Shown piece after piece: positions 5,803 through 24,682 of a stretch of DNA of 64,000 bases. The translations under genes and the position numbers were made by a program. The DNA is from Escherichia coli (GTDB taxonomy: Bacteria > Pseudomonadota > Gammaproteobacteria > Enterobacterales > Enterobacteriaceae). The stretch lies in assembly GCF_003019035.1 (NCBI RefSeq), contig NZ_CP027448.1; one strand, written 5' to 3'. Below the pieces are notes generated by a model. The model did no database searches, had not been told where the DNA came from, and saw nothing but the letters and a program-made list of their open reading frames with translations. Numbering within the stretch: position 1 is the stretch's first letter; each line of letters opens with the position of its first letter.

Positions 5803-8800
5803 TCAGTCTCCGCCCAGGGTTTTCTCTTTCTGCAGGTCACGAACCATATCCCGCTCCATCTGCTGCAGACGCTCCTGCAGCAGATTTTCCCGGGCAACCT
5901 CCCGGACCGCTTCCCGCTCCCGTTGTGATTCACGCAGCACACTATCCGGCAGCGCGGCTTCCCGTTCAGTTATGGCAGCCCGGTCACGCTCCTGCCCGGC
6001 AATTTCCCTGACAGCCAGCTCTGTTTTGCCATCCGGCAGGTCAGGTTTGTTCTCTGCCATTTTACGGACAATTTCATCTGCGCGGCGTTCCGTTTCACGG
6101 CGGATGGCCTCTTCAGCCTGCCTCTGTGCCAGCACCTCTGCCGTGACCGGTTCGCCATTTCCGGCTCCCGGCTGGACGCTGTTGTCCGGGATATCCCCCC
6201 ACACGCGGCCACCGGTTATGGCACCGGGATTCCACGGACGGCCTTCACCGGCGATTCTTACCACCACACCACTGTCAGGATTATCACGGGCAATCCGGAC
6301 ACCATCCTGCATATTATCAGCCAGCAGGCTTTCTCCGTTACGGCTGCCCTGCAGGGCCACAAACTGTGCATCTTCACTGCCCTTCACCCGGCCTTCACCA
6401 CTGAATCCCCGCAGCCCGTTTCCGTCATCCGTGGTCAGCGGGTTCAGCCAGATACCGGCAGACTTGCCGTTACGGTCAAAAGCCGGCAGTGCCACATACG
6501 GCTGTGGGTATTTGCGCCCCGGAGCAATAAACCGTGCAGGACTGTCTCCCCCGGCCAGCCCCGCCTGACGAAGAACGGCTCGGCCTGCCGCCACGTCCCG
6601 CAGCTCCCGCGCCGTACTGAACAGCCGCTCTGCATTCATGACCTCCCGGTCCGATTTCGGCTCAAACACATCGTGGGCAGTTCCTTTCTGTTCGGCATTG
6701 TTAATGGCATCCGTCCAGCCCTGACGGTTATCGGTGTACACCTGCACATGCTGCTTCATACGCGACAGGGCCACGTAGGCTGACTCAAAGCCGGCCATCT
6801 GTTTCCGGCTGCCTTCCGTGCCTTCAAGCGCAATGGCAAAGGTTTCACTTGCCCCCTGCGCACCGTGGGCGGTGATGGCATAGGCCAGGTCAATATGTTG
6901 CTCTGCCCGCTCCTGACCGGGGCGAATCACCCGGGTCTGCTGTCCGCCCGACAGCGTGACACTGTCACCGGAAACCGCTGTCACCGTCCAGACGCTGTTG
7001 GCCACATAGCCGCGCTCCCGGTCACTCTTCGTGAAGCGCATCCGGTCACCGGTCCCCACCCGGATGGTGTCCGGGGTGTACAGTGTGACACCTTCAGCCA
7101 CCGCCTCCCGGGGCGAAATCAGCCGCGTGTTACCTTCCGCATCCTGCAGGGTTATCAGCCCGTCACCCTTACTGATACCGGCAATCCGGTGATACACATT
7201 ATCCACCAGGACAAGTGCGTCCCGATGTGTCTCCCAGGTGGAGAGACGACGCAACTCCCCGTCGCGTATATTCGCTGTGTTCAGGACAGGCACCATGACC
7301 TGCTCTTTCCCCAGCTCACCGGCCTTTTCCCGTGCATCATGAATCATGCTGTTCAGTACGCGCCGGTCCTCATTCAGGTGCGTGACAATAAGCGTCTGCT
7401 CCCGTGCTTCCGGCGTCCTGCCGGTATAGTCGCGGACAATGGCTTCATACAGTGTCATGGGGACATCCGGAAAAGCCTCGCCGTTCTGCATCGCCTTCTG
7501 CTGCGCTTCTGCCAGTTTCGCTTCCTGGCTGTGACTGAACTCCGTCACAGAGTGCTCCGGTACCCATGCGCCCTCCTGACGTGGCACCTGAGACGGTTTC
7601 ACACTCTCAAGCCCGGACAATGCCCTTTCCACATCCCGGTTAATCAGGCTGTATACCGCCTCCCGCAGTTCCGGCGTCTGACGCACAATCTCCTTCATGA
7701 TGGCCACATCGGCAGCGCTGCGCGTCTGCTGGAGACGGAAAGGCTGACCGGGCGCGATGGCCTGCAGCTGGTCCGTGTCACCGCTGGCCACTGCACGACC
7801 ACCACCGGCCGCAATCAGGGCATATGCCCGTGCCATGTCGGTATTGCCCACCATTGAGCTCTCATCGAGCAGGAACAGCGTGTTGCTGAAATCCGGCGTT
7901 TCTCCGCTGCGCAGCTGCAGCTGCGTGCCATGCAGAAAGGACGCCAGTGTCTGTGCATCCACGCCGGCGCTGCGCATCTCCCCGACCGCACGGTGCGTGG
8001 GCCCCAGCCCCACGACACGGGGACGCTCACTCTCCGGCAGCATGTTCACGGCTGACATCACCGCCCGGAACTGTGTGGTCTTACCCACACCGGCATAGCC
8101 CTGCACCACCGTGAAACGGTCGGACGTTTCCAGTATCATGCGGGTGGCGGCACGCTGTCCTGATGTCAGACTCTCCATGACTCCGCCAGGGACTCTCTCC
8201 ATCAGCGGCGTGACCGCCTCCTTACCTTCGAGAATATGGCGAAGAATGCTCTTTTCTGCCTCATACGACGCACGGGAAACCAGCAGGCCTGTGCCATAGC
8301 CTTTTGCCACATCCACATACAGTAAATCACCGCGTTTTATCTGCGCATTGATTTCCCCTCCCAGTTCAGTAAAACTGGTTCCTTCTGCAGCAAACGACTT
8401 CGCCTCTGTCAGCAGGTCCACCATGCTGAAGGCCAGGTTTTTACTTTCCAGCACAGGAAGGGCCAGATGAATGGCCTGCTGTGCCGGCGTGTGAAGCCCG
8501 GCTTTCTGCAGACTGATAGCGGTTTCCAGCAATGTCTCACCGGCACGCGCCTTTATCTGCTCAGAAACCACCGTAAAGGAGGGATGGCGGGCAAGGTTTT
8601 CCGCCGTACGGGTTTCATCCAGCGAGGAATACAGCCGGACATCACGACCGCTGCGGGCCAGACCGTTCAGGGTGGCGTTGTCCATTGCCATCTGTGTGAC
8701 GGAGGCAAAAACCTTCGCACTGTCGCTGACGGAATGCCCGGGCGTTTCCACCCAGCCGTTCTCCAGCTTCAGTGCCGTGAACGGTGAATCGCTCACAGGC

Positions 8801-11094
8801 AGGGAGGCCGGTTCAGCCCGCCCCGGCACAACAACCGTCATCGAATCTTCACTGACGGATGCCACCTGCAGGCGGTCACCGCCGGAGACGCGGAGTCCGG
8901 GAATTTTCCCTGTCACCCTCAGACGCTCGCCGTCTGCCACCGGCATTTTTTCCGGCCGGAACAGCGACCAGCTGCTGTCCAGGGAGGAAATACGCACCAC
9001 CTGCGTTTCGCCCTGCGCATCCCGCAGGGTCAGGCTGTGACTCTGCGCCGTCACCCGATCGATAACATAGAGGTCATGACTGCGTGTCTCCGGGTTCCAC
9101 TGCTCCATCACCATCCCCGGACGGTACATATCCCGCAGATAACGGCTCCGGCTGTCCAGCCAGACCGGTGACAGAGCGGTCATGGTCACCTCCGGGTGTC
9201 CGAGCACGCCCTGTGTTTTCAGCTCACTGCGAACGGCCTGTGTCAGTATGGCCTGTTCCCGTACCCCGCTGACCTGTGCCACGCTCTCTTCTCCGGCTTT
9301 CACGCTGGCCGCAAAATCTCCGGCCAGCCGGGCATAGCGGACATTACGGTCCGGTTCACTGATGATGGTGGCCGGTCGCTGTTCTCCCCCCTGCCAGCGA
9401 TATGTGTTCACCCCGGCATCTTTCATGGCCATCAGTGCACTGCCTGTACCGGTTCGCTGCCCGCTGTCGGTTATCAGGACCTGTACGTTATGACGTGCGG
9501 CACCGTCCAGCAGGGTTAACGTCTCTTTCAGGGAGAGTTTTTCGCCCTGGTCAACGATAACAGTACTGCCCAGCGTGAAGGCCATGCCTTCCAGCAGCTG
9601 ACGACGTCCGGTTATCAGCTCACCGGACAGCCGTTCATCCTGCTTCAGGTTCATCTGCGAGCGACGGTCAGCAGCGATAATCTGCACTTCCCGCCCCTGC
9701 TCCCGGGCCATCATGACCAGTTCAGCCACCCGCTCACGCTGCCCGGCTGCACCGCCCTGCCCGGACACAATGGCCAGCGACGGACGGTCCTGTGCCAGAA
9801 CACTGACGGCATCGCTGTAGCCGGCCGTCCGGGGGACACTTTTCTCCGGATGTACGGTCACCCGGTTCTGTTTCATGATATCGCGACTGAGTGCCCGGAC
9901 TGACAGTTCATCGAGCACATGAATCCCGGACGTGAACAGCCCCTTCTCACGGTCAAGGGGGATGAGTTGCTCACGGCTGATGGCCTCATCGATACCGGCG
10001 CGTGCCCGTTCAATCACACCATTTTCCGGCGGCAGTATACCGACCGTTCTGGCCAGCACGTCCGTGTACGTAAACTGCACTTTTCGTTCACTTAATCCGG
10101 CAATCGCCTGTGTCACCGCCTGCTGCACATCCGGCCCCTCCTGTGAAACAGCCCCGGGCGCCTGCGTGCGGGTCTCCGCACGCTGATCCGCCGCGTCACG
10201 ATATGCCCGGATGTCGAACCCGGTTTCCTTCAGCGTCTGCATCCATTCAGCCATTCTGACTTCAGGATCGACGTGCTGTTTGGATTTTCGCGTATCCAGT
10301 GCCGCCACATCCCGGGATTTCAGCGAGGCGTCCTCCCCGACGGCCTCCCGGATAGTCTGCGAGCGTCCAGAAAAGGCCTCCACCGGTATGCCCAGCATTT
10401 CCCACATACCGTGCTGACCCACCACTTCGGTTTCATAGCCCAGCGCCTCAACCTGCTCTTTCAGTTTTTCCCGGTAGAGCCTGCCAAAGGCAATCTGATT
10501 AGCGTACACATTCTCAATGAACCCCGTTTTCCCCACTTTGTCACTGCTCAGTGTCTTCCATTCGCCGTTATGCTGCGTGACATTAGCCACCACCGCATGC
10601 GTGTGTAACTGTGGTTCCTGATCGCGACTGGTGTCGTGGTTAAACAGTGCCATCACCAGATTACCGGTCAGCACCGTTTCTGACTGTCCGTCCGTCATCA
10701 CCCGTGTGGAGGCCAGCGCCTCCACCTGACGGACAGCAAAATCCACGGCCTGGTTATGTGCTTCAATAAGACGTTTGTCCCCCCCGAGCATGGCCATCAT
10801 GGAGACACTTTTGGGAGCGGAAAAGGTCAGGTCGTAGCCGGGACGATGCCTGTTACGGCCATCCTGCATGCGGCTTAAATCCGCCCCGTCTGGCAACCTG
10901 CCCTCCAGAAGGCGGGTAAAGACATCCTTATCGACACTGCCCTGCAGCCCCAGTTGTTCAGCCCCCTGGCCGGCCCAGCGTTCTCCCATGCTGCCCAGCA
11001 CATAGTAATTATCCTTGTCGGTATAATAGTTCCCGGCACTTCCGGCCGATCTGACCTGCGCAATACTCATCATAAACGTATATCCCTTTGACAT
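5803..11094 (-). CDS. traI: TraI relaxase/helicase
   Basis: 1763-aa ORF ...MMSIAQVRSAGSAGNYYTDKDNYYVLGSMGERWAGQGAEQLGLQG..., essentially F TraI; start may be a few codons inside the ORF. Confidence 0.97.
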   Translation of the reverse strand: MSKGYTFMMSIAQVRSAGSAGNYYTDKDNYYVLGSMGERWAGQGAEQLGLQGSVDKDVFTRLLEGRLPDGADLSRMQDGRNRHRPGYDLTFSAPKSVSMMAMLGGDKRLIEAHNQAVDFAVRQVEALASTRVMTDGQSETVLTGNLVMALFNHDTSRDQEPQLHTHAVVANVTQHNGEWKTLSSDKVGKTGFIENVYANQIAFGRLYREKLKEQVEALGYETEVVGQHGMWEMLGIPVEAFSGRSQTIREAVGEDASLKSRDVAALDTRKSKQHVDPEVRMAEWMQTLKETGFDIRAYRDAADQRAETRTQAPGAVSQEGPDVQQAVTQAIAGLSERKVQFTYTDVLARTVGILPPENGVIERARAGIDEAISREQLIPLDREKGLFTSGIHVLDELSVRALSRDIMKQNRVTVHPEKSVPRTAGYSDAVSVLAQDRPSLAIVSGQGGAAGQRERVAELVMMAREQGREVQIIAADRRSQMNLKQDERLSGELITGRRQLLEGMAFTLGSTVIVDQGEKLSLKETLTLLDGAARHNVQVLITDSGQRTGTGSALMAMKDAGVNTYRWQGGEQRPATIISEPDRNVRYARLAGDFAASVKAGEESVAQVSGVREQAILTQAVRSELKTQGVLGHPEVTMTALSPVWLDSRSRYLRDMYRPGMVMEQWNPETRSHDLYVIDRVTAQSHSLTLRDAQGETQVVRISSLDSSWSLFRPEKMPVADGERLRVTGKIPGLRVSGGDRLQVASVSEDSMTVVVPGRAEPASLPVSDSPFTALKLENGWVETPGHSVSDSAKVFASVTQMAMDNATLNGLARSGRDVRLYSSLDETRTAENLARHPSFTVVSEQIKARAGETLLETAISLQKAGLHTPAQQAIHLALPVLESKNLAFSMVDLLTEAKSFAAEGTSFTELGGEINAQIKRGDLLYVDVAKGYGTGLLVSRASYEAEKSILRHILEGKEAVTPLMERVPGGVMESLTSGQRAATRMILETSDRFTVVQGYAGVGKTTQFRAVMSAVNMLPESERPRVVGLGPTHRAVGEMRSAGVDAQTLASFLHGTQLQLRSGETPDFSNTLFLLDESSMVGNTDMARAYALIAAGGGRAVASGDTDQLQAIAPGQPFRLQQTRSAADVAIMKEIVRQTPELREAVYSLINRDVERALSGLESVKPSQVPRQEGAWVPEHSVTEFSHSQEAKLAEAQQKAMQNGEAFPDVPMTLYEAIVRDYTGRTPEAREQTLIVTHLNEDRRVLNSMIHDAREKAGELGKEQVMVPVLNTANIRDGELRRLSTWETHRDALVLVDNVYHRIAGISKGDGLITLQDAEGNTRLISPREAVAEGVTLYTPDTIRVGTGDRMRFTKSDRERGYVANSVWTVTAVSGDSVTLSGGQQTRVIRPGQERAEQHIDLAYAITAHGAQGASETFAIALEGTEGSRKQMAGFESAYVALSRMKQHVQVYTDNRQGWTDAINNAEQKGTAHDVFEPKSDREVMNAERLFSTARELRDVAAGRAVLRQAGLAGGDSPARFIAPGRKYPQPYVALPAFDRNGKSAGIWLNPLTTDDGNGLRGFSGEGRVKGSEDAQFVALQGSRNGESLLADNMQDGVRIARDNPDSGVVVRIAGEGRPWNPGAITGGRVWGDIPDNSVQPGAGNGEPVTAEVLAQRQAEEAIRRETERRADEIVRKMAENKPDLPDGKTELAVREIAGQERDRAAITEREAALPDSVLRESQREREAVREVARENLLQERLQQMERDMVRDLQKEKTLGGD

Positions 11095-15448: not shown

Positions 15449-18270
15449 AATGGCCCCTTCAGTCGTTCCTTTTTACCATCAATCATTTTTTTCACAGCCT
15501 CTCCTGATGGCTCAGGTATTATCTTTTGACTTTCTCGCTCTTCATTATATTTATTATTCTGAGATAATGCTTCTGTTTTATGGTGATTCTGCAGTTCAGA
15601 ATACTGTCCTCTTACAATATTTTCCTCGCCATGTATGCTGTTCTGAGTATCACCTATATTCCCTTTATATTCTGTGACCATATTATCAACCTGATGTTTT
15701 ACATCATTACGGATATTACTGTCCTGTGTTCTTTGATCAATAATGGCCTGATGCCCCTGATGGTCAGCAATAATATTCTGGCTGCCACCACCCGAAGGTA
15801 CGCTCTCCATTCCTTTACCAATATCGCCACGGGATTCACGCCAGGCATTATCAACACCAGGTTGTACCTGTTCTTGCACAAAAGACCATGCCATCGCCCG
15901 ACGGCGTTCTGCAATCTCCGGTGAACTGGTGTTTGTCAGAATAGCTTCTGCATACTGCGGCGCGTGTTTCATCACATACTGTGCAAACTGTTGCGACAGG
16001 TCTTCACTCATCTGCCCACTCATGCTTTCAGTACGGGATGCCATTTCAGCATATTCATGGCTGCGGGTCATATTCGTCGTGTACTGGTCGTAACTCTGTT
16101 TCGCTGAGTTCAGGGCTGCAGACAACTGGTCCACGCGGGAATCGGCATTATTGTCAGTATGGCTTCCGGATTCACTGACTTTGCGACTGGTAAAGTAATC
16201 GCTGGCCTCTTTAAAGTCCTTACTGGCTCTAGCGTCAATATCATGGCGAGCATCATGGGAAGCCCTGCTGCCACTACTGGCTTCATGTGAGTCCAGATCA
16301 CTACCGTCAATACTGGCTCGCCCACCAACCTTAGCGCCAACATCAACACGCACACCAAAAAGGCTGGGCTTTGCATCTAATCCGGCATGAGCATCACCAT
16401 ACAATCCAGCTGATGCAGTCGTACTTCTCGATGCCAGTTCTCTTGTCGCCTGCTCATTACTGATATTATGCGCCTTCGCATAGCTTTCCACTGCACTGCG
16501 CATACGGCTGGCCATCATGGAGTCCTGAGCACTCATCGTGCTGTCAGCACCACCGGTGACAGAATCACTGCTCCCCCGGTTAGAACCAAACTGACTGAGC
16601 GTGTTCCAGGCACTGGCAATACTGCTGCTGAACCCATGCAGGGCACTTTCTGCTCTGTTCGATGCTTCCCGGGCCATTTCCTGTTGTGCCGCCGCAATCT
16701 GACGCGTTGCATTGATGCCGACCGGTAACCGGGACATCGCTCCGCTTGCATCCATCACCATATTACCATCACGGGTCTGTGTGGCGGTTGCGCCACTGCC
16801 GGTCTGGTACATCATCTGACCAAACGACGTGGTGCTGTTGGTGCTCCAGCTGAAGCCGTTCACGTTCTCCGTCTGCATGTTGCCGTAGGAGTAATTACCG
16901 TCAACCACACTGCCTGCTGCACTGGCGGTCGGGCTGATAGCAGAGGAAGCGAAATGGCTGTACACACTGGAAAATCCTGCCCCGAGCCCCCTGACCATCA
17001 TCCAGGATAATGGCGGGATCATCATGGAAAGATACCCGGCAGTGGAAGCCAGATCGGAGTATTTCAGCTGTATCTGTGAAATTTCCGAGAGCACCACCGG
17101 TGCACCATTCTGCTTCGCATAAAATGTCATGGCGCTGTTCAGAATGGCGTACAACATTGGCCATGACTGCAACCACATCAGGGCAAACACATAGCCTTTC
17201 AGGACGGACAGCGTCAGTTTGTTGAAGACAGCCGCCAGTACCAGGAGCGGGAAAATACCGATGGCGATCCCCGTCAGGATGGTCTGCGTCATGGGCAGTG
17301 TCCGCATCGCCACATGACCGATGGAGACATGTGCCAGACGTTGCTTCTCCATCGATGATGTGGTGGCCAGATTCACCAGGCTGGCCGAATCACCATTACG
17401 TGCGGCATAACTGGTGATCCCCTCCTTCAGCGCATTGATGGTGACATTCTGGCGGATGATCTGGCTGGCTGATTTACTTGAGCCATAGAAGTAACTGTAA
17501 CTGTCGCCAATCAGCGTACTGAACAACAGGTTCGGATCAGGGCGTCCACCAAATAGCTGCTGGGCATAATAATGCCATGTTTTTCCGCCACTCTGTGTGT
17601 CCAGATTCAGCTTGTCTTTCAGCGAAACCGACGCGTCCTTACAGGTCACGAAATTATTATTGCTGTCATAAACGCCCCGCAGCGGACTGGGGCGGGAAAA
17701 AATCAGCGTGTAAGGATCAGCGGAGGCCATCAGTTCCTCCAGCGTGTATTTGTGGTTCAGGTAAATATCCCCCATCACGCAGTTCTGCACATAATCCTGG
17801 AAAAGATTGGCGATTTCCGGATTACGGGACAAAAAGTCGGTGCTTTTTGATACCAGTTCTGCGCCAAACAGCATCCCCGTTTTGCTGTAGGTGACACTGT
17901 CCGGTTGCGTGAAGATCATCTCGTAACTGGCCACCATTGCATGCCCGATACGGGTCGTCAGTGAAAGTGGCATCGCCAGTCCGACCGGCACATTATCCAC
18001 CCGGTGAATTTTGACCAGGTCACTGTTATCAATAATCTGCACCGATGTGCGGACATTAACCAGCAGGCTGATAAGCACAAACACGGCCACCCAGCCCAGC
18101 AAATCCATCACGTTGTGCCGCTGTACCCACATTACGGCCACCGCTAGAACAGACAATGTGAGCGCAATTTTTTCAATGGAATCCCACGTCCGGGTCCCCA
18201 TAAAGGCGGCAATGGCATTCAGGTTATTCCGCAACCACTCACCACCGGCAATCACATAAACTTCATTCAC
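15445..18270 (-). CDS. traG: TraG mating-pair stabilisation protein
   Basis: 941-aa ORF, size and position as F TraG. Confidence 0.9.
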   Translation of the reverse strand: MNEVYVIAGGEWLRNNLNAIAAFMGTRTWDSIEKIALTLSVLAVAVMWVQRHNVMDLLGWVAVFVLISLLVNVRTSVQIIDNSDLVKIHRVDNVPVGLAMPLSLTTRIGHAMVASYEMIFTQPDSVTYSKTGMLFGAELVSKSTDFLSRNPEIANLFQDYVQNCVMGDIYLNHKYTLEELMASADPYTLIFSRPSPLRGVYDSNNNFVTCKDASVSLKDKLNLDTQSGGKTWHYYAQQLFGGRPDPNLLFSTLIGDSYSYFYGSSKSASQIIRQNVTINALKEGITSYAARNGDSASLVNLATTSSMEKQRLAHVSIGHVAMRTLPMTQTILTGIAIGIFPLLVLAAVFNKLTLSVLKGYVFALMWLQSWPMLYAILNSAMTFYAKQNGAPVVLSEISQIQLKYSDLASTAGYLSMMIPPLSWMMVRGLGAGFSSVYSHFASSAISPTASAAGSVVDGNYSYGNMQTENVNGFSWSTNSTTSFGQMMYQTGSGATATQTRDGNMVMDASGAMSRLPVGINATRQIAAAQQEMAREASNRAESALHGFSSSIASAWNTLSQFGSNRGSSDSVTGGADSTMSAQDSMMASRMRSAVESYAKAHNISNEQATRELASRSTTASAGLYGDAHAGLDAKPSLFGVRVDVGAKVGGRASIDGSDLDSHEASSGSRASHDARHDIDARASKDFKEASDYFTSRKVSESGSHTDNNADSRVDQLSAALNSAKQSYDQYTTNMTRSHEYAEMASRTESMSGQMSEDLSQQFAQYVMKHAPQYAEAILTNTSSPEIAERRRAMAWSFVQEQVQPGVDNAWRESRGDIGKGMESVPSGGGSQNIIADHQGHQAIIDQRTQDSNIRNDVKHQVDNMVTEYKGNIGDTQNSIHGEENIVRGQYSELQNHHKTEALSQNNKYNEERESQKIIPEPSGEAVKKMIDGKKERLKGPL

Positions 18271-19643
18271 AGTGTGCTCCCTCCGAAGTGATAGTTGTTC
18301 TGGTAACGACTGAGCATGCGGGCGGAAAGCTGCTGACGCATGTAGCTCATCTGACGATCGACAACCAGCAGCGCATCCTGCTGTACCTGCACCTGTGACT
18401 GAAACGCCGCAATCTGCCGGGTGGCATCATTCATGTTGTCGTTAATATGCTCGATAACCGCTTCGTCATAATTTCCCGTGGCCACCATCGCCCGGGCCTG
18501 CTGTATCAGCTCCTGAATGTACTGCAGCAGGATGTCGTAACCGATATAGTCCGTCAGCTGGTAAATCATGCTGTTGGAAACGCCGAGCATCTGCGGGTCA
18601 ACCAGATATTTGAAGACGGGGATGGTGGTACTGGAAATAAAACCTTTTTCCTTGTCATCCAGAGGCGTGTCACTGACCGCTTTGTTCTGAATGCTGGCCA
18701 GAAGTTTAGTAATCTGAGACTTCAGTGCATTATCCCGGCTGATGGTCACCGGTGTGTCAGCCACCACTTTCAGGCATTTATCAGAATCGTTGCAGTGATA
18801 AATTTTTGCTGTGCCGCCTTCCATCATGGCCCGGATAATTGAGCGGTCAGAGGTTCTGGCTGACAGCGGTGTGATTTCGCCGTTGGGACCAAACACCAGT
18901 GAGCCGGTCAGCGTCATCACAAATTCTTTCAGCTCTTTGTTGCCGTCAAACATTCTGTTTTTGGAAAGCGCATTCCACATGATGTTGATGTTTTTGGTCA
19001 CCCGCTCCTTATCCTTGTCGCTGGCTTTATCCCTGACACTGTCAGATTTCCCGCCAACGGTACATCCCTGCCGGGAAGCCGCCCAGTCAGCAAAAATATT
19101 GCTCTCACCGGCAATGTCCTGACAGACTTTCTGCTGGGACACCTGCGTCCGGGGGAAAAGCCCGCCGATAATCCCCTGTGCAGCCTGGCAGGAACTGAGG
19201 TTCATACTGTTAATGTCGCTTGCCATTTTCTGCACGAAGTCTTTTGCGGTTTTTATTTCCGGCACCGTTGTCTGCAGGGCAAGGTCAAAAAAGTAACCGG
19301 CAGCATTGCTCATAATCTGCTTAACAAAACGCTGCAACTGCTCACCATTAATAAAACTGAACGAGCCGAGATAGGCGTCGATGCCGCCACATCCAGCATT
19401 GATATCCGGCAGCGTCATGGAAATTAGCTGAACATTTTTGACCTGAGTACGGGCATACAGGGAGCCACCGTAAGCATAGCCGGCGGCCTGCCCCTGCCAG
19501 ACGCCCGGCTGTGTGGTATTGGAAGCAAATCCCAGCTTATTAAAGAACTGATTCATGTCGCTGTTCACATCCGCTGACGCTGCAGGCGTCACCGTCAGTA
19601 AGGCGGCACAAAGAACCAGAAGAGGTTTAATGCGTGGCATCAT
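18267..19643 (-). CDS. traH: TraH pilus assembly protein
   Basis: 458-aa ORF with signal peptide, position between trbF and traG. Confidence 0.9.
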   Translation of the reverse strand: MMPRIKPLLVLCAALLTVTPAASADVNSDMNQFFNKLGFASNTTQPGVWQGQAAGYAYGGSLYARTQVKNVQLISMTLPDINAGCGGIDAYLGSFSFINGEQLQRFVKQIMSNAAGYFFDLALQTTVPEIKTAKDFVQKMASDINSMNLSSCQAAQGIIGGLFPRTQVSQQKVCQDIAGESNIFADWAASRQGCTVGGKSDSVRDKASDKDKERVTKNINIMWNALSKNRMFDGNKELKEFVMTLTGSLVFGPNGEITPLSARTSDRSIIRAMMEGGTAKIYHCNDSDKCLKVVADTPVTISRDNALKSQITKLLASIQNKAVSDTPLDDKEKGFISSTTIPVFKYLVDPQMLGVSNSMIYQLTDYIGYDILLQYIQELIQQARAMVATGNYDEAVIEHINDNMNDATRQIAAFQSQVQVQQDALLVVDRQMSYMRQQLSARMLSRYQNNYHFGGSTL

Positions 19644-20053
19644 TCTTGCCCTCCCTTAATGTGTTCTCCCGGTGCATACGACATTTCAGCAGGAATATCT
19701 TGATATTTCCGTATATTAATTCGTACATTGGGGACAGAAAAAAATGTAACAAGAAACCCGGCTGCAAGCGCATATAACGTATACGGAATGGCATATATCA
19801 GGATATTCCACATATAACTCGAATTATTTAATTCCGGGTCCGCTTTCCACGAATCAATACAGGCATCAAAAATAATATCCATAACTGTCCATAAAACAAT
19901 TCTGGCAGTCAGGAATACCAGAGACAACCCAGCATACCTGCCAGTAATTCTGGAAATGTATTTATAATCTCGTTCTGTACTTCTGATTTTGAGTTCAGGA
20001 TTACTTTTATTTTCTCTCATTATAAGCCCCCTCTGATATTTCCGATAATTCAT
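19640..20053 (-). CDS. trbF: TrbF
   Basis: Small membrane ORF directly upstream of traH; assigned by F gene order. Confidence 0.6.
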   Translation of the reverse strand: MNYRKYQRGLIMRENKSNPELKIRSTERDYKYISRITGRYAGLSLVFLTARIVLWTVMDIIFDACIDSWKADPELNNSSYMWNILIYAIPYTLYALAAGFLVTFFSVPNVRINIRKYQDIPAEMSYAPGEHIKGGQE

Positions 20054-20288
20054 TCAGACCGGTCATGCGGCTGTAATATATTTCAGACACCGAAATCCAT
20101 CCCACAATTGCCCCCACAAAAAACACAACAGAAACAGAAAAGGTAAGACTCAGAGAAACGACAATTTCTACAGGGCTGGCGGGATAAAAAAGCCCCTGAC
20201 GGATAAAGGGGATATTCAGGCTGACGATTATTCCCGTCACGATGCCGGATATTCCGGCAATGAGTAACACCACCTGCTTATTTCGCAC
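20007..20288 (-). CDS. trbJ: TrbJ
   Basis: 93-aa hydrophobic ORF between trbB and trbF; assigned by F gene order. Confidence 0.6.
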   Translation of the reverse strand: MRNKQVVLLIAGISGIVTGIIVSLNIPFIRQGLFYPASPVEIVVSLSLTFSVSVVFFVGAIVGWISVSEIYYSRMTGLNELSEISEGAYNERK

Positions 20289-20823
20289 CTTTTTTTCCTC
20301 CGTACATCTGCAAAACGGTATTCACCCGCGCCATAAAACCGGCGGCATCCGTTGCCCCCTGTAAAAGCGGTAATGCCTCAAGCGTGTTGACGTTGACCAG
20401 GAAGGTGGTCGGTGTGGCCACCGGGATATTCGGGAAGAAGGTCTGCATCACCTCCGGTGGCACCGGTAATGCTTCAGGAAAGGCCGTATCCCCCTGACCA
20501 TCCAGGGTGTAGGAAAAAACGGAAAAGCCGTACTGCTGTGCCAGCTGTTTCAGTACCGGGTCAAACTGGTGACAGTAAGGGCAATGCCCCTGCATAAACA
20601 GCACCACCTTCCAGTCGGCCAGGTTAACCTGCCTGCCATTACTGAGGCGGAACCAGCGGGGAGTCGGCTTTGCTGTCCTGGCTGACGTGCCTGCTGCCGG
20701 TTGTGCAGGCTGCGTAGCCATACCCTGCGGATTCCAGAGTCGCTCTATTTCATCCCGGGTGGAGGCCTGCACAGCAGCGGCGCTCAGCAACAGGGTGAAC
20801 AGCAGTGATTTAGTGAGAGACAT
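20278..20823 (-). CDS. trbB: TrbB periplasmic thiol-disulfide isomerase-like protein
   Basis: 181-aa ORF with signal peptide and CPYC thioredoxin motif; F order. Confidence 0.85.
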   Translation of the reverse strand: MSLTKSLLFTLLLSAAAVQASTRDEIERLWNPQGMATQPAQPAAGTSARTAKPTPRWFRLSNGRQVNLADWKVVLFMQGHCPYCHQFDPVLKQLAQQYGFSVFSYTLDGQGDTAFPEALPVPPEVMQTFFPNIPVATPTTFLVNVNTLEALPLLQGATDAAGFMARVNTVLQMYGGKKGAK

Positions 20824-21094
20824 GTCCGCCCTCCTGCTGCCCTTCCATCATGGCCTGTTGCCTGGCTTCCAGTGCCTCACGCTCTTCCCGGCTGACACGG
20901 GCAATCCATGCATCCAGCACCTGGTATGCGCCGAACAGTACGAGAATGGCCGCAATCAGCTCCGCCAGAAAAAAAGCCATCCAGGGTTTGCTGTAAACAA
21001 GACGGGCGACGATATGAAACCAGACACCCAGGGAAAATACCCACATTCCCGTAATATCAAGCCGGGGTAAAGAGAATCTGCGTTTACTTATCAT
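20810..21094 (-). CDS. traQ: TraQ pilin chaperone
   Basis: 94-aa membrane ORF at the F traQ position. Confidence 0.75.
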   Translation of the reverse strand: MISKRRFSLPRLDITGMWVFSLGVWFHIVARLVYSKPWMAFFLAELIAAILVLFGAYQVLDAWIARVSREEREALEARQQAMMEGQQEGGHVSH

Positions 21095-21174
21095 GTTAAA
21101 CTCCGGTTATTATTTACATGAGAGTATTCATGTCTGTAATATTCGCGTTTGTGTGATATTAATCAGAGGTACAA

Positions 21175-21489
21175 ATGGAAAAGCGATCTTTTAAAGAAAA
21201 ACTGGAAATAATCAGAAACATAATAAGAGAGTCGTTACTGGGAAATGCGGCAATTATTGCGCTGATATATGCAGCATCACATTCATTACCGGTCAATGCC
21301 TTCCCTGACTATCTTGTAATAACTTTATTAAGTATCGCAGCAGGCATCGTTGTATTATGGTTATTTTCAATTATCTATATTTATTTTTGTGAGCTATTCA
21401 GAAGCCACTGGATTGCGGTATGGTTTATCATATGGTCTTCAGTAATCAACCTCATTATTTTGTATGGTTTTTATGACCGTTTTATATGA
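21175..21489 (+). CDS. artA: ArtA-like ORF on the anti-tra strand
   Basis: 104-aa hydrophobic ORF on the strand opposite the tra operon between traQ and trbA, same size and location as F artA. Confidence 0.55.
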   Translation: MEKRSFKEKLEIIRNIIRESLLGNAAIIALIYAASHSLPVNAFPDYLVITLLSIAAGIVVLWLFSIIYIYFCELFRSHWIAVWFIIWSSVINLIILYGFYDRFI

Positions 21490-21490
21490 C

Positions 21491-21838
21491 TTAGCCTGTC
21501 ATAAGCCCCCTTATAAAAAACCACATCACTCCGGACCATACCGATGACAACACAATACAGATAAATATTCTTCTGAACCTGTCGAAGTTCGTAACGTCCG
21601 GTAATGCGGCCGCAACTATTGAAACAACCAGTGCTGCGCCCTGACTCATAATTGCACCACACAGAGACCAGAGACTGGCGGTAAGCACATATAAACACGC
21701 GATATTAATAACAAGGAAAACCAGTGAGCTCAAGAGAAACATTTTCCTGTCATTACGCTCAGAAAAGAAATAACCGGCAATAATGACAAATATTAACAGA
21801 ACAACACCTGTAAACATTTTCAAATAATCTTCACTCAT
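21491..21838 (-). CDS. trbA: TrbA
   Basis: 115-aa membrane ORF between traF and traQ; F order. Confidence 0.65.
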   Translation of the reverse strand: MSEDYLKMFTGVVLLIFVIIAGYFFSERNDRKMFLLSSLVFLVINIACLYVLTASLWSLCGAIMSQGAALVVSIVAAALPDVTNFDRFRRIFICIVLSSVWSGVMWFFIRGLMTG

Positions 21839-21853
21839 AAATCAAATCCGCGA

Positions 21854-22627
21854 TTAAAAATTGGGTTTAAAATCTTCAGAAACGTTCAGGAACTGTTTTG
21901 CCAGGTCGTCCTGCGAAATAAAGCCGTATGATAACGGGCGAACACTGCCCTGTTTCGGGTCAACCAGCATCATGGCCGGGAAATATTTCACGCCGAGGCG
22001 CTGCGCCTGCCCCTGGTCAGTCCGGGAATCCGGCAACAGCGGATTAATCACGCCATCCACGGAAACGGGAATAACACTCAGACCATACGTATCCCGGAAG
22101 CCATTAATGACCTGCGCCAGTTGCCCGTCGATGGGGTCCTGCCCCCGGTAAAAAAACATGATGCCGTAGTGTTCAGCCAGTTTCGCAATGGCCTGTCGCT
22201 GCTGCGCCTGGTCTGCTGCCAGCTGGTTCCGTACCGTGCCGTTGTAATGGCTGTACTGCAGGTTATAGTCCAGTTCAGGATGTGCCAGCATGGCCTTTCT
22301 GGCGCTCATGGTGAAAAGCCCGGCCTGCTGAGTCCAGTAATTTTGCAGCCGGAAATATTTCACAAAATTATCCACGCCGGGATACAGAATGGCTTCGTAC
22401 AGCGCCCGCTTTGTTGCCGTCTGCAGTGCGGCCAGTTTCTGCATAATATCCGGTTCCTGACGGGGGGCTGCAGGTACAGGTTTATTTTCTTTTTCCTTCG
22501 GATTTATTTTCTCGTTATACCACTGCCAGCCTGCATCTTTTCCTGACGCCGGAAAAATAAAGCAGCAGAGTAACAGTGGCAGTAATGCTTTATTCATCTT
22601 CATTCCTTTCATCACTTTTTCTTTCAT
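21854..22627 (-). CDS. traF: TraF pilus assembly (thioredoxin-fold) protein
   Basis: 257-aa ORF with signal peptide; size and position of F TraF. Confidence 0.9.
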   Translation of the reverse strand: MKEKVMKGMKMNKALLPLLLCCFIFPASGKDAGWQWYNEKINPKEKENKPVPAAPRQEPDIMQKLAALQTATKRALYEAILYPGVDNFVKYFRLQNYWTQQAGLFTMSARKAMLAHPELDYNLQYSHYNGTVRNQLAADQAQQRQAIAKLAEHYGIMFFYRGQDPIDGQLAQVINGFRDTYGLSVIPVSVDGVINPLLPDSRTDQGQAQRLGVKYFPAMMLVDPKQGSVRPLSYGFISQDDLAKQFLNVSEDFKPNF

Positions 22628-22873: not shown

Positions 22874-24682
22874 TTACTGTCCTGCCTGTTTCAGCTGGTC
22901 AGCAATCTGCTCTTTCACTTTCTGCGTCAGAACGCCACTGTCCGGGATTTTCTGGTTATTCATCAGGTCTTCGTAGAAGTTAGTGAAATCCAGTCTGTTG
23001 AACTGAATTTTCTGCAGCTCATCAACCGTAATCCCCCGACAGTCAGGATGCTTCGCTCTGCCAAAACTGATACGCAACTGACCGTTGCGCCCCTGCTGCT
23101 GGACTATCTGCGCCAGCTTCGAATCAAACTGACAGTAGCTGCGTTTTTTCTCCAGACAGACGCCCAGCACTTTCTTCGAACAGAACTCCCCGACGCTGAC
23201 GGTCAGTTTGTTTGATTTTGCTTTAGCCAGGGCTTTTTCATCACTGCTGCATTTGGCCAGCCCGATATCCTGTCCCCAGCCGCTGTCCTTACAGCAGTTG
23301 CTGTATCCGGCTGCAGCCTTCTTACAAAATTTCGCCTGACCGGTGAAAGCACGGACATCCACCCCGTTCAGCGCCGCAACATCCTTACCTGCAGCGGCCA
23401 GTGCTGCCAGCTGAGAAACAGCTTCAGCAAAATCATTACTCTTCCCGCCCTGAGCCTTATCGCATTCGCCATCGAGACAGAAGACGTCTCCCCCACAGAC
23501 CATCACTTTCCCTGATGTTTTTGACTCGCAGGAGTAGGTGGCATATTCATGCAGACAGGCACCTTCTTCGGAGTAAAAGGCGCACTGGTGTGACACCAGG
23601 GTACAGGCAGGATTGTCGGTGTAGGTCTGACAAGTTCCCTTGTCTGCTGACTGCGTGACATACGTGTCCCGGTATGCCCAGCAGCTCTGGTACATGCTGT
23701 ATGACTGACCATCTTTCACCAGCGTCCTGTTCCCGCCAGCCTCCGTACATTCTGTTTTTGTCAGTTTCCCCAGCTCCTTGCTGAACGGGCAGCTTTCAGA
23801 CCAGACAACATACGGGGTGTACGAGGCTTTTTTTACCCTGACAACCAGACGCAGCTTCATTGCCGTATGACGTTTGAATTTTGTATTCCCGACCCGGACG
23901 GGGTGAGATGACGTAAAAGCCACACCGGCAGTCAGTGTTTTCTGTACTGGTGTAAATGAGGCATCTGCTGAGTATTTGGCATTCCAGCTCAGTGGGGTTC
24001 CCAGTACTGTAATTGTCATAGGTACACTCTTCTGCAAGTAAGTACGACTCCAGCTGTAATGCGCATCGACAATTTCACCGGTAACGGGAGAGGTAATGGA
24101 GACAACATACTGACCATTCACTTCACGTGCAGGTAGCTGACTCATTTCATACTCCAGCGTCCGGGTTTCCCATGTGGTACTCCCCTGCAGCTTCATACGG
24201 GCAGTTCGTGTGCAGTACTGCTCCACCTGTAAATCCCGCTCACAGGTGTAATTCGTGTATTCACTCCTGCTAATCTCCTGCGCACTGCACTGCTGCCCGG
24301 TGTTTCCCACAATGCTGTCAGCCCGGTTCACCACATCCCTGCCGGTCTGGATAAACGGTGCATCCGGTGAAAGAATGTCTTTCGGCTTGTTCATGAATGA
24401 TTCTGTAATGGTTTTTCCGGTTTCACCGGTCGCCCATTCCGTGGTGCCGTCATTTTTCAGGCCGCCATCCCCGCCGGCAGTCACGCCACCGTAATATTTT
24501 GTCTCGTCCGGATTCGCGTTATAGCCGGGGATACTCTCCTGTGGCTTAAAGCCCTGAATACTGCTGCTTCCCTGCCCTTTGATCTGGTGAGCAAAATCAG
24601 AACCGGCCCGGTAATCACTGTTGCTGTCAGCCTGTGCCATGCCGGCAACCAGAGCCAGTATCAGAGGTAAAATACGTTTCAT
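22874..24682 (-). CDS. traN: TraN mating-pair stabilisation outer-membrane protein
   Basis: 602-aa Cys-rich ORF with signal peptide, as F TraN. Confidence 0.95.
   Translation of the reverse strand: MKRILPLILALVAGMAQADSNSDYRAGSDFAHQIKGQGSSSIQGFKPQESIPGYNANPDETKYYGGVTAGGDGGLKNDGTTEWATGETGKTITESFMNKPKDILSPDAPFIQTGRDVVNRADSIVGNTGQQCSAQEISRSEYTNYTCERDLQVEQYCTRTARMKLQGSTTWETRTLEYEMSQLPAREVNGQYVVSITSPVTGEIVDAHYSWSRTYLQKSVPMTITVLGTPLSWNAKYSADASFTPVQKTLTAGVAFTSSHPVRVGNTKFKRHTAMKLRLVVRVKKASYTPYVVWSESCPFSKELGKLTKTECTEAGGNRTLVKDGQSYSMYQSCWAYRDTYVTQSADKGTCQTYTDNPACTLVSHQCAFYSEEGACLHEYATYSCESKTSGKVMVCGGDVFCLDGECDKAQGGKSNDFAEAVSQLAALAAAGKDVAALNGVDVRAFTGQAKFCKKAAAGYSNCCKDSGWGQDIGLAKCSSDEKALAKAKSNKLTVSVGEFCSKKVLGVCLEKKRSYCQFDSKLAQIVQQQGRNGQLRISFGRAKHPDCRGITVDELQKIQFNRLDFTNFYEDLMNNQKIPDSGVLTQKVKEQIADQLKQAGQ

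Follow-up and report, generated by a model that had tools for sequence, protein, structure and literature searches.

artA of the F plasmid, read against the transfer operon: a gene probably for an accessory inner-membrane protein, under purifying selection and frequently lost

The gene artA has been known since the late 1980s (1989). It was reportedly named by Wu and Ippen-Ihler in 1989, who are said to have used galK and lacZ fusions to show that its promoter is active and that it is translated, and an artA insertion mutant of Kathir and Ippen-Ihler (1991) reportedly still transferred. It is among the last classic genes of the F transfer region to lack an assigned function, and it is the sole protein-coding gene of the F transfer operon that reads backwards.

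We analysed a stretch of 64,000 nucleotides of Escherichia coli DNA (contig NZ_CP027448.1), referred to here as the window. An F-type transfer operon lies on its minus strand, and every tra gene flanking artA is found on that strand:

5803-11094, minus strand: traI, in the tra operon.
Between traI and traH in the operon listing, minus strand: traD and traG, in the tra operon.
18267-19643, minus strand: traH, in the tra operon.
Between traH and traQ, minus strand: trbF, trbJ and trbB, in the tra operon.
20810-21094, minus strand: traQ (Pfam PF09679 and TIGR02741), with its start codon 19 nt from the -35 element of artA.
21175-21489, plus strand: the artA coding sequence, an ATG-initiated ORF of 104 codons plus a TGA stop, matching F ArtA and being the only stop-free frame.
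21491-21838, minus strand: trbA (NCBIfam NF010266 equivalog, 212 bits), a convergent neighbour whose stop codon is separated from that of artA by 1 nt.
Between trbA and traN, minus strand: traF and trbE, in the tra operon.
22874-24682, minus strand: traN, in the tra operon, with more genes upstream.

Two low-GC islands were seen along this operon, at 19650-20250 and 21000-21900 (GC 0.35-0.42, against 0.50-0.60 elsewhere in the operon). These islands match the small non-essential membrane-protein genes trbF/trbJ and artA/trbA.

A preliminary description of the window had pointed to a hydrophobic product of 104 aa, encoded opposite the tra operon between traQ and trbA, and had likened it to F artA in location and size. 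Each of these points is borne out. The ORF listing contains the reading frame, whose translation is MEKRSFKEKLEIIRNIIRESLLGNAAIIALIYAASHSLPVNAFPDYLVITLLSIAAGIVVLWLFSIIYIYFCELFRSHWIAVWFIIWSSVINLIILYGFYDRFI; both neighbours are called by Pfam and NCBIfam equivalog models; and the Kyte-Doolittle profile of the product has three hydropathy segments. When window positions 21095-21495 were compared with the canonical F plasmid (NC_002483.1), 399 of the 401 bases were identical, and the matching locus in that record (82206-82520, on the strand opposite traQ and trbA) is annotated as 'protein ArtA' (WP_000415566.1). The two proteins share 102 of 103 aligned residues (E=6e-73), and the two differences over the 401 nt comprise one synonymous change and one S50T replacement. 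Judging from this comparison, the window ORF is almost certainly the artA of the F plasmid. The gene itself is already known and the preliminary finding is accurate; what our analysis adds is a family-level description, the picture of selection set against frequent loss, and a number of annotation problems.

The gap between traQ and trbA spans 396 nt at 34% GC, and DNA of that composition offers many potential stop codons. A first-order Markov model of a gap with this length and GC content, run 20,000 times, produced an ORF of at least 104 aa by chance with P=0.0056. To see how the frame has evolved, lineages for selection tests were defined from public plasmids:

Lineage F, the window: ORF of 104 aa.
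Lineage T2, locus L001: ORF of 111 aa, about 78% nucleotide identity over the locus and 73% within the ORF, with 619 PLSDB records.
Lineages T3a and T3b, loci L005 and L007: ORF of 113 aa.
Lineage T4, locus L003, from Salmonella: ORF of 112 aa, 23-32% amino-acid identity, BLASTP E=3e-7.
Relatives of T4, loci L008 and L009: ORFs of 111 and 107 aa, mostly unannotated.
Klebsiella lineage, locus L010: ORF of 108 or 113 aa, depending on the start codon chosen.

The reading frame is kept among these F-like plasmids, and it is kept under purifying selection. In every lineage compared it is the only one of the six frames without stop codons, and in all inter-lineage comparisons it has the lowest dN/dS of the six. 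By the NG86 (Nei-Gojobori) method this ratio was 0.25 for F-T2, 0.24 for F-T3b and 0.28 for T2-T3b, whereas the five control frames read from the same aligned DNA of these three lineages gave 0.43-1.54 and contained 5-17 stop codons each. The T4 clade served as a replicate, with a dN/dS of 0.10-0.21 in the artA frame versus 0.37-1.45 in the control frames. The artA values resemble those of its neighbours trbA (0.30-0.54) and traQ (mostly 0.10-0.33).

These results bear on whether the ORF could be fortuitous, that is, an untranslated open spacer between trbA and traQ. Such a reading could draw on the absence or breakage of artA in more than half of the related plasmids, and on the fact that no function or family is known for it. 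However, the low chance probability, a frame that is open in eight or more divergent lineages and keeps conserved residues at identities as low as about 20%, and a frame-specific low dN/dS replicated in two clades make this hardly credible, and we regard a spurious ORF as effectively excluded. artA is very probably a real, selected membrane-protein gene.

A profile search of 1.84 billion representative proteins returned just 37 representatives of ArtA, and the family is therefore a small one. Its intact members, the distant ones included, measure 100-120 aa, and the ORF is colinear and recognisably homologous in F, T2, T3, T4, L008, L009 and the Klebsiella locus L010. The proteins share an N-terminal motif that reads roughly LEIIR(N/D)IIRE(S/T)LLGNAA, together with three hydrophobic segments. 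In an alignment of 19 members, R14 and W62 never vary and R18 is nearly invariant; among nine closer members, I16, I17, N24, A26, L30, Y70, F84 and W87 are invariant as well, and R18 too is invariant in the colinear lineages named above. In both alignments conservation is highest in the N-terminal helix that carries the motif.

At each of the 11 loci examined, four distant metagenomic contigs among them, artA is encoded opposite its neighbours and runs toward, up to or into the 3' end of a small, usually hydrophobic gene. One of the distant loci, L012, is clearly of F type (TraN, TraF, TrbB-like, TrbF, TraH), and no recognisable traQ was found at its artA locus. Divergent artA-like ORFs of 107-112 aa (L008 1501-1836; L003 1196-1534) lack annotation in most of the plasmid records from E. 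coli and Salmonella in which they occur; these unannotated ORFs are under purifying selection, with an omega of 0.10-0.21.

We found nothing above threshold for ArtA in Pfam, NCBIfam, PADLOC or PHROGs. A match to Oxidored_q2, at 19 bits against a cut-off of 26, was set aside as ordinary transmembrane-helix noise. A sequence-profile search of the PDB and a Foldseek comparison of the AlphaFold model of ArtA with PDB folds returned only generic or designed helical bundles, at E>1. Descent of ArtA as an inverted paralogue of TrbA was ruled out by profile comparison (hhalign probability 0.07%). The statement that the function of artA is still unclear thus holds, as neither the family libraries nor the literature searched provided one.

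Two features describe the architecture of the predicted protein:

21178-21252, plus strand: a charged N-terminal amphipathic helix with the family motif (residues 2-26, KEKLEIIRNIIRESLLGNAA), from the alignments.
21232-21474, plus strand: three transmembrane helices, predicted from the Kyte-Doolittle profile and AlphaFold2 at about residues 20-38, 44-72 and 78-100.

The AlphaFold2 model, made with the 19-sequence alignment, has helices at residues 2-35, 43-74 and 79-103 (mean pLDDT 77, pTM 0.59), and the hydropathy segments agree with these three helices. Positive charge is found at the N-terminus and in the loop between the second and third transmembrane helices (RFKRKK in T4). Hydropathy and charge distribution suggest that ArtA is a three-pass inner-membrane protein, predicted to be N-in/C-out. 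Such a protein would have a mass of about 12 kDa, a cytoplasmic N-terminus and a periplasmic C-terminus, and the conserved Arg-bearing helix at its N-terminus (LEIIRNIIRESLLGNAA; R14 invariant, R18 nearly so) is probably a functional surface.

Alongside its conservation, artA shows frequent loss and decay, for which three positions are most informative:

21168-21445, no strand: the R100-type deletion of 278 bp, which removes the ribosome-binding site, the start codon and codons 1-90 (from exact prefix and suffix matching of the window against R100).
21337-21375, no strand: a 39-nt in-frame deletion between short TATC repeats, which removes half of the second transmembrane helix (L015 and protein variants).
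21433-21435, plus strand: the Trp87 codon (TGG), a stop in recurrent 86-aa and 73-aa alleles (variants P0032, P0033 and P0064-P0070 end in ...WFII).

The locus is matched by 2,799 PLSDB records, and the interior of the ORF is present in only 1,297 of them. About 1,500 records match the flanks and not the interior, almost all of them R100-like with the same remnant of about 187 bp. Because they share this junction, the 278-bp deletion probably arose once in an ancestor and then spread with a successful plasmid lineage, so that it does not stand for many separate losses. R100 and the roughly 1,500 related plasmids with this deletion are nearly all typed as conjugative, and pEC_B24, a published plasmid without artA, transfers readily. 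This shows that plasmids which appear transfer-proficient do without artA.

Smaller lesions are also common. The allele with the 39-nt deletion encodes 91 aa, or 73 aa when a stop is added, and 134 PLSDB records in the 80-90% identity band are tied to its 91-aa form. The 73-aa form was seen on 375 contigs, and frameshifted alleles give rise to forms of 89 aa. Alleles with read-through tails into insertion sequences occur at no fewer than seven positions and derive from at least two different IS ends, so that artA looks like an insertion-sequence target; an IS5 copy also lies between artA and trbA in a Klebsiella plasmid (L004 1920-2725). Insertions of this kind in artA should be polar on traQ through traX.

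With artA missing or damaged in more than half of the sampled plasmids, any benefit that it brings would be conditional. On this comparative evidence a dispensable, accessory role is very likely, and ArtA would not be required for building pili or for transferring DNA. Purifying selection in divergent lineages, a small family limited to F-type transfer regions, and loss in about half of the sequenced relatives together point to a conditional accessory role and not to a core conjugation function.

We also searched for signals that might drive artA. Two were found ahead of the gene:

21113-21142, plus strand: a candidate artA sigma-70 promoter, from consensus scans, with its -35 element TTTACA at 21113-21118.
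21165-21169, plus strand: a Shine-Dalgarno-like AGAGG, read from the sequence, 5 nt before the artA ATG.

A promoter had been named beforehand as a feature to check, and a sigma-70-like TTTACA-16-TGTAAT is indeed present upstream of artA. It lies in the 80-nt spacer adjoining the traQ start. The -10 element may be TGTAAT at 21135-21140 (16-nt spacer) or TAATAT at 21137-21142 (18-nt spacer); the candidate matches the consensus at 10 of 12 positions, a score that 4% of shuffles also reach. Its sequence is identical in F, T2 and R100, but the upstream segment common to these three also carries the traQ ribosome-binding region and has been shared recently (traQ dS 0.065), so that this identity says little on constraint on the promoter. 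The T3b counterpart, TTTACA-16-TATAAT, matches at 11 of 12 positions. In the distant lineages T4 and L008-L014 the promoter consensus did not rise above shuffled controls, and purine-rich motifs resembling ribosome-binding sites precede the artA start codon in most other lineages. A Salmonella study that used a stranded RNA-seq kit listed an IncFIB-plasmid artA as differentially expressed; strand-aware counting is not stated in that paper, and we take the result as weak support for artA transcription. The transcriptome paper on pBIC1a leaves this ORF out of its annotation and thus offers no expression value for it.

On these signals, a promoter of its own is a likely prediction for artA. In the F, T2 and T3 lineages the gene would be driven by a sigma-70 promoter within the 80-nt spacer beside the traQ start and, being read from the opposite strand, it falls outside the tra transcript. 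A second promoter-like sequence, ATGACA-16-TATTCT, recurs on the anti-tra strand in the 3' part of trbA (window 21544-21571, plus strand; L003 1534-1561; L007 2870-2897), and may simply reflect the conserved C-terminus of TrbA.

No terminator-like site was found in 20700-22000, nor between artA and trbA, and no Rfam RNA family or sRNA matched in 20600-22000. With convergent transcription of artA and tra and no terminator between them, expression of artA might be highest at times of weak tra transcription.

The same convergent layout, with no terminator-like site in 20700-22000, would also suit a locus that works mainly at the level of RNA or transcription, where the promoter fires against tra and the encoded protein is secondary. 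A transcript fully complementary to the trbA-traQ segment of the tra mRNA could then modulate the expression of traQ and of the genes distal to it, whether polymerases collide, a promoter is occluded or RNase III cuts the duplex. The anti-tra orientation, kept in every lineage examined, fits this proposal, as does the R100 deletion, which takes the coding region and leaves the 73-nt promoter-bearing segment intact. However, purifying selection acts at the amino-acid level and is specific to the artA frame; protein motifs are kept at 20-38% identity, where nucleotide similarity is gone; motifs resembling ribosome-binding sites are retained; no Rfam family matches; and R100, which lacks most of the antisense segment, still transfers well. 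We therefore consider a mainly RNA-level role improbable, and favour an encoded protein as the product that matters.

The surroundings of artA have a mosaic evolutionary history. Between F and T2, dS is 0.065 for traQ, 0.89 for artA and 0.92 for trbA; between T3b and T4, trbA is nearly the same (dS 0.098) and the artA alleles are saturated for change. These contrasting divergences imply that the artA/trbA slot is a recombining, low-GC variable region inside a conserved operon. Sharp recombination breakpoints were observed between window positions 20810-21838 and L001, L002, L003 and L007, and the trbA of R100 is T2-like save for an F-like 3' end.

Across F-like plasmids, small hydrophobic proteins fill the trbA position. 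They belong to at least four families that are unrelated to one another, and several of the proteins lack annotation; this part of the operon behaves as a variable site for accessory genes. The small genes at this position are the following:

L008, 1797-2162.
L009, 1825-2193.
L010, 1803-2189.
L011, 480-890.
L012, 3340-3639.
L014, 604-978.

One lineage offers a view of artA next to a broken trbA. In T3a (L005 and L006, Salmonella plasmids) an internal deletion has left only the two ends of trbA (L005 about 2843-2919, compared with L007 2817-3161). The artA of T3a carries 10 non-synonymous and 4 synonymous changes, against 0 and 1 in its sister T3b; helical positions of the T3a protein acquired L>P (twice), L>R, S>P and Y>C. 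This excess has a binomial p=0.015 against an omega of 0.27, and traQ in the T3a/T3b pair is still constrained (0.10). The pattern, seen in a single lineage, is a hint that artA is coupled to trbA. The idea of a conserved ArtA-TrbA pair is weakened by partner genes that elsewhere come from unrelated families, and a strict pairing is further opposed by R100, which keeps trbA without artA, and by T3b and T4, whose trbA genes are nearly the same yet whose artA genes are very different.

ArtA may act together with whichever small membrane protein the variable trbA position encodes. We hold a link of artA either to the tra-off state or to TrbA as tentative at best, and rather unlikely. A more ambitious proposal would have ArtA define a conserved, so far unrecognised 'counter-transcribed' module of F-type transfer operons. 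In it, a protein with three transmembrane helices and a cytoplasmic helix bearing an invariant arginine would always be encoded against the operon, its gene converging on that of a variable small membrane protein. Made mainly at low tra transcription, it could act as a brake in the membrane or as an immunity partner, gating or antagonising the partner protein or tra genes distal to it; this we find improbable. On a point of naming, Pfam PF27686 calls the hydrophobic F-type TrbA (L007 2817-3161) 'Conjugal_tfr_repressor_TrbA', which looks like a confusion with the unrelated IncP TrbA repressor.

ArtA has a naming problem of its own, as many RefSeq/PGAP records of the F-type protein call it 'toxin ArtA', and a transcriptome paper repeats the label by listing artA as an 'IncFIB encoded toxin gene'. 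Taken literally, the name would make ArtA an ADP-ribosylating toxin of the ArtAB type, or else a membrane-damaging addiction toxin held in check by antisense tra mRNA; the second sense might suit a membrane protein that is small and hydrophobic and whose gene faces a complementary transcript from the opposite strand. However, neither an ADP-ribosyltransferase (Pertussis_S1-type) domain nor another toxin domain was matched by Pfam or NCBIfam in 19 members, and we found no NCBIfam model or toxin domain behind the name in these two libraries. No artB lies beside artA, whose neighbours are traQ and trbA. A literature search on 'toxin ArtA' led to nothing beyond the ArtAB toxin of Salmonella and the ArtA regulator of pSK41; the papers that use the term concern the prophage ArtAB toxin, and the one RNA-seq paper just echoes the label. 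Type I toxins (Hok/Gef-like) have at most about 50 aa, a single transmembrane helix and a dedicated antisense sRNA, unlike the 104 aa and three helices of ArtA. Finally, artA is readily lost from plasmids that keep the supposed antidote intact, and cases of the opposite are seen too. The ArtAB version is refuted by the sequence, and we judge a toxin of either kind to be highly improbable. The RefSeq name appears to be a collision with the Salmonella ArtAB toxin. Two practical points follow for annotation: the 'toxin ArtA' label is apparently unfounded, and many divergent artA-like ORFs are left unannotated.

The immunity proteins of pore-forming colicins (E1, Ia, A) are small proteins with 3-4 transmembrane helices, encoded by an AT-rich gene that lies opposite an inducible operon and has its own promoter. 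By analogy, ArtA could be an immunity- or exclusion-type membrane protein, made constitutively and shielding the host membrane from a plasmid or competitor factor. What favours this is architecture (the opposite strand, a promoter of its own, AT-richness with a GC of 0.35, and three transmembrane helices), along with divergent alleles and mosaic recombination at a fixed position. Yet none of the 19 ArtA members matched a Pfam family of colicin or microcin immunity proteins at E<=1, PADLOC gave no match, and the ORF listing places no colicin activity gene, and no toxin gene, next to artA. The dN/dS values stay far under 1 and, at the resolution of this analysis, give no hint of diversifying selection; the loss of artA is frequent and apparently harmless. 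We therefore view an immunity or exclusion role as very unlikely; membership of ArtA in the colicin immunity protein family itself is ruled out, given the absence of both a profile match and an adjacent colicin gene.

Taken as a whole, the evidence makes it probable that artA is a genuine F-plasmid gene with its own promoter, encoding a three-pass inner-membrane accessory protein that does not come from the tra transcript.

Compared with known systems, two namesakes share only the name with F-type ArtA: the Salmonella ArtA, the A subunit of ArtAB, is a soluble ADP-ribosyltransferase, and the ArtA of the Staphylococcus plasmid pSK41 is an RHH DNA-binding repressor. Colicin immunity proteins share the genetic layout of ArtA and differ from it in having no sequence or profile similarity and in their adjacent colicin gene; ArtA is not known to confer immunity. 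Within the transfer region, TrbA, TrbE, TrbF and TrbJ are like ArtA in size, hydrophobicity, low GC, patchy distribution among F-like plasmids and the absence of a known requirement in transfer; unlike ArtA, they are encoded on the tra strand and co-transcribed with the operon. The ArtA of the F plasmid shares its length, its position between traQ and trbA, and its anti-tra strand with the window gene, which differs from it by the conservative S50T replacement and one synonymous change.
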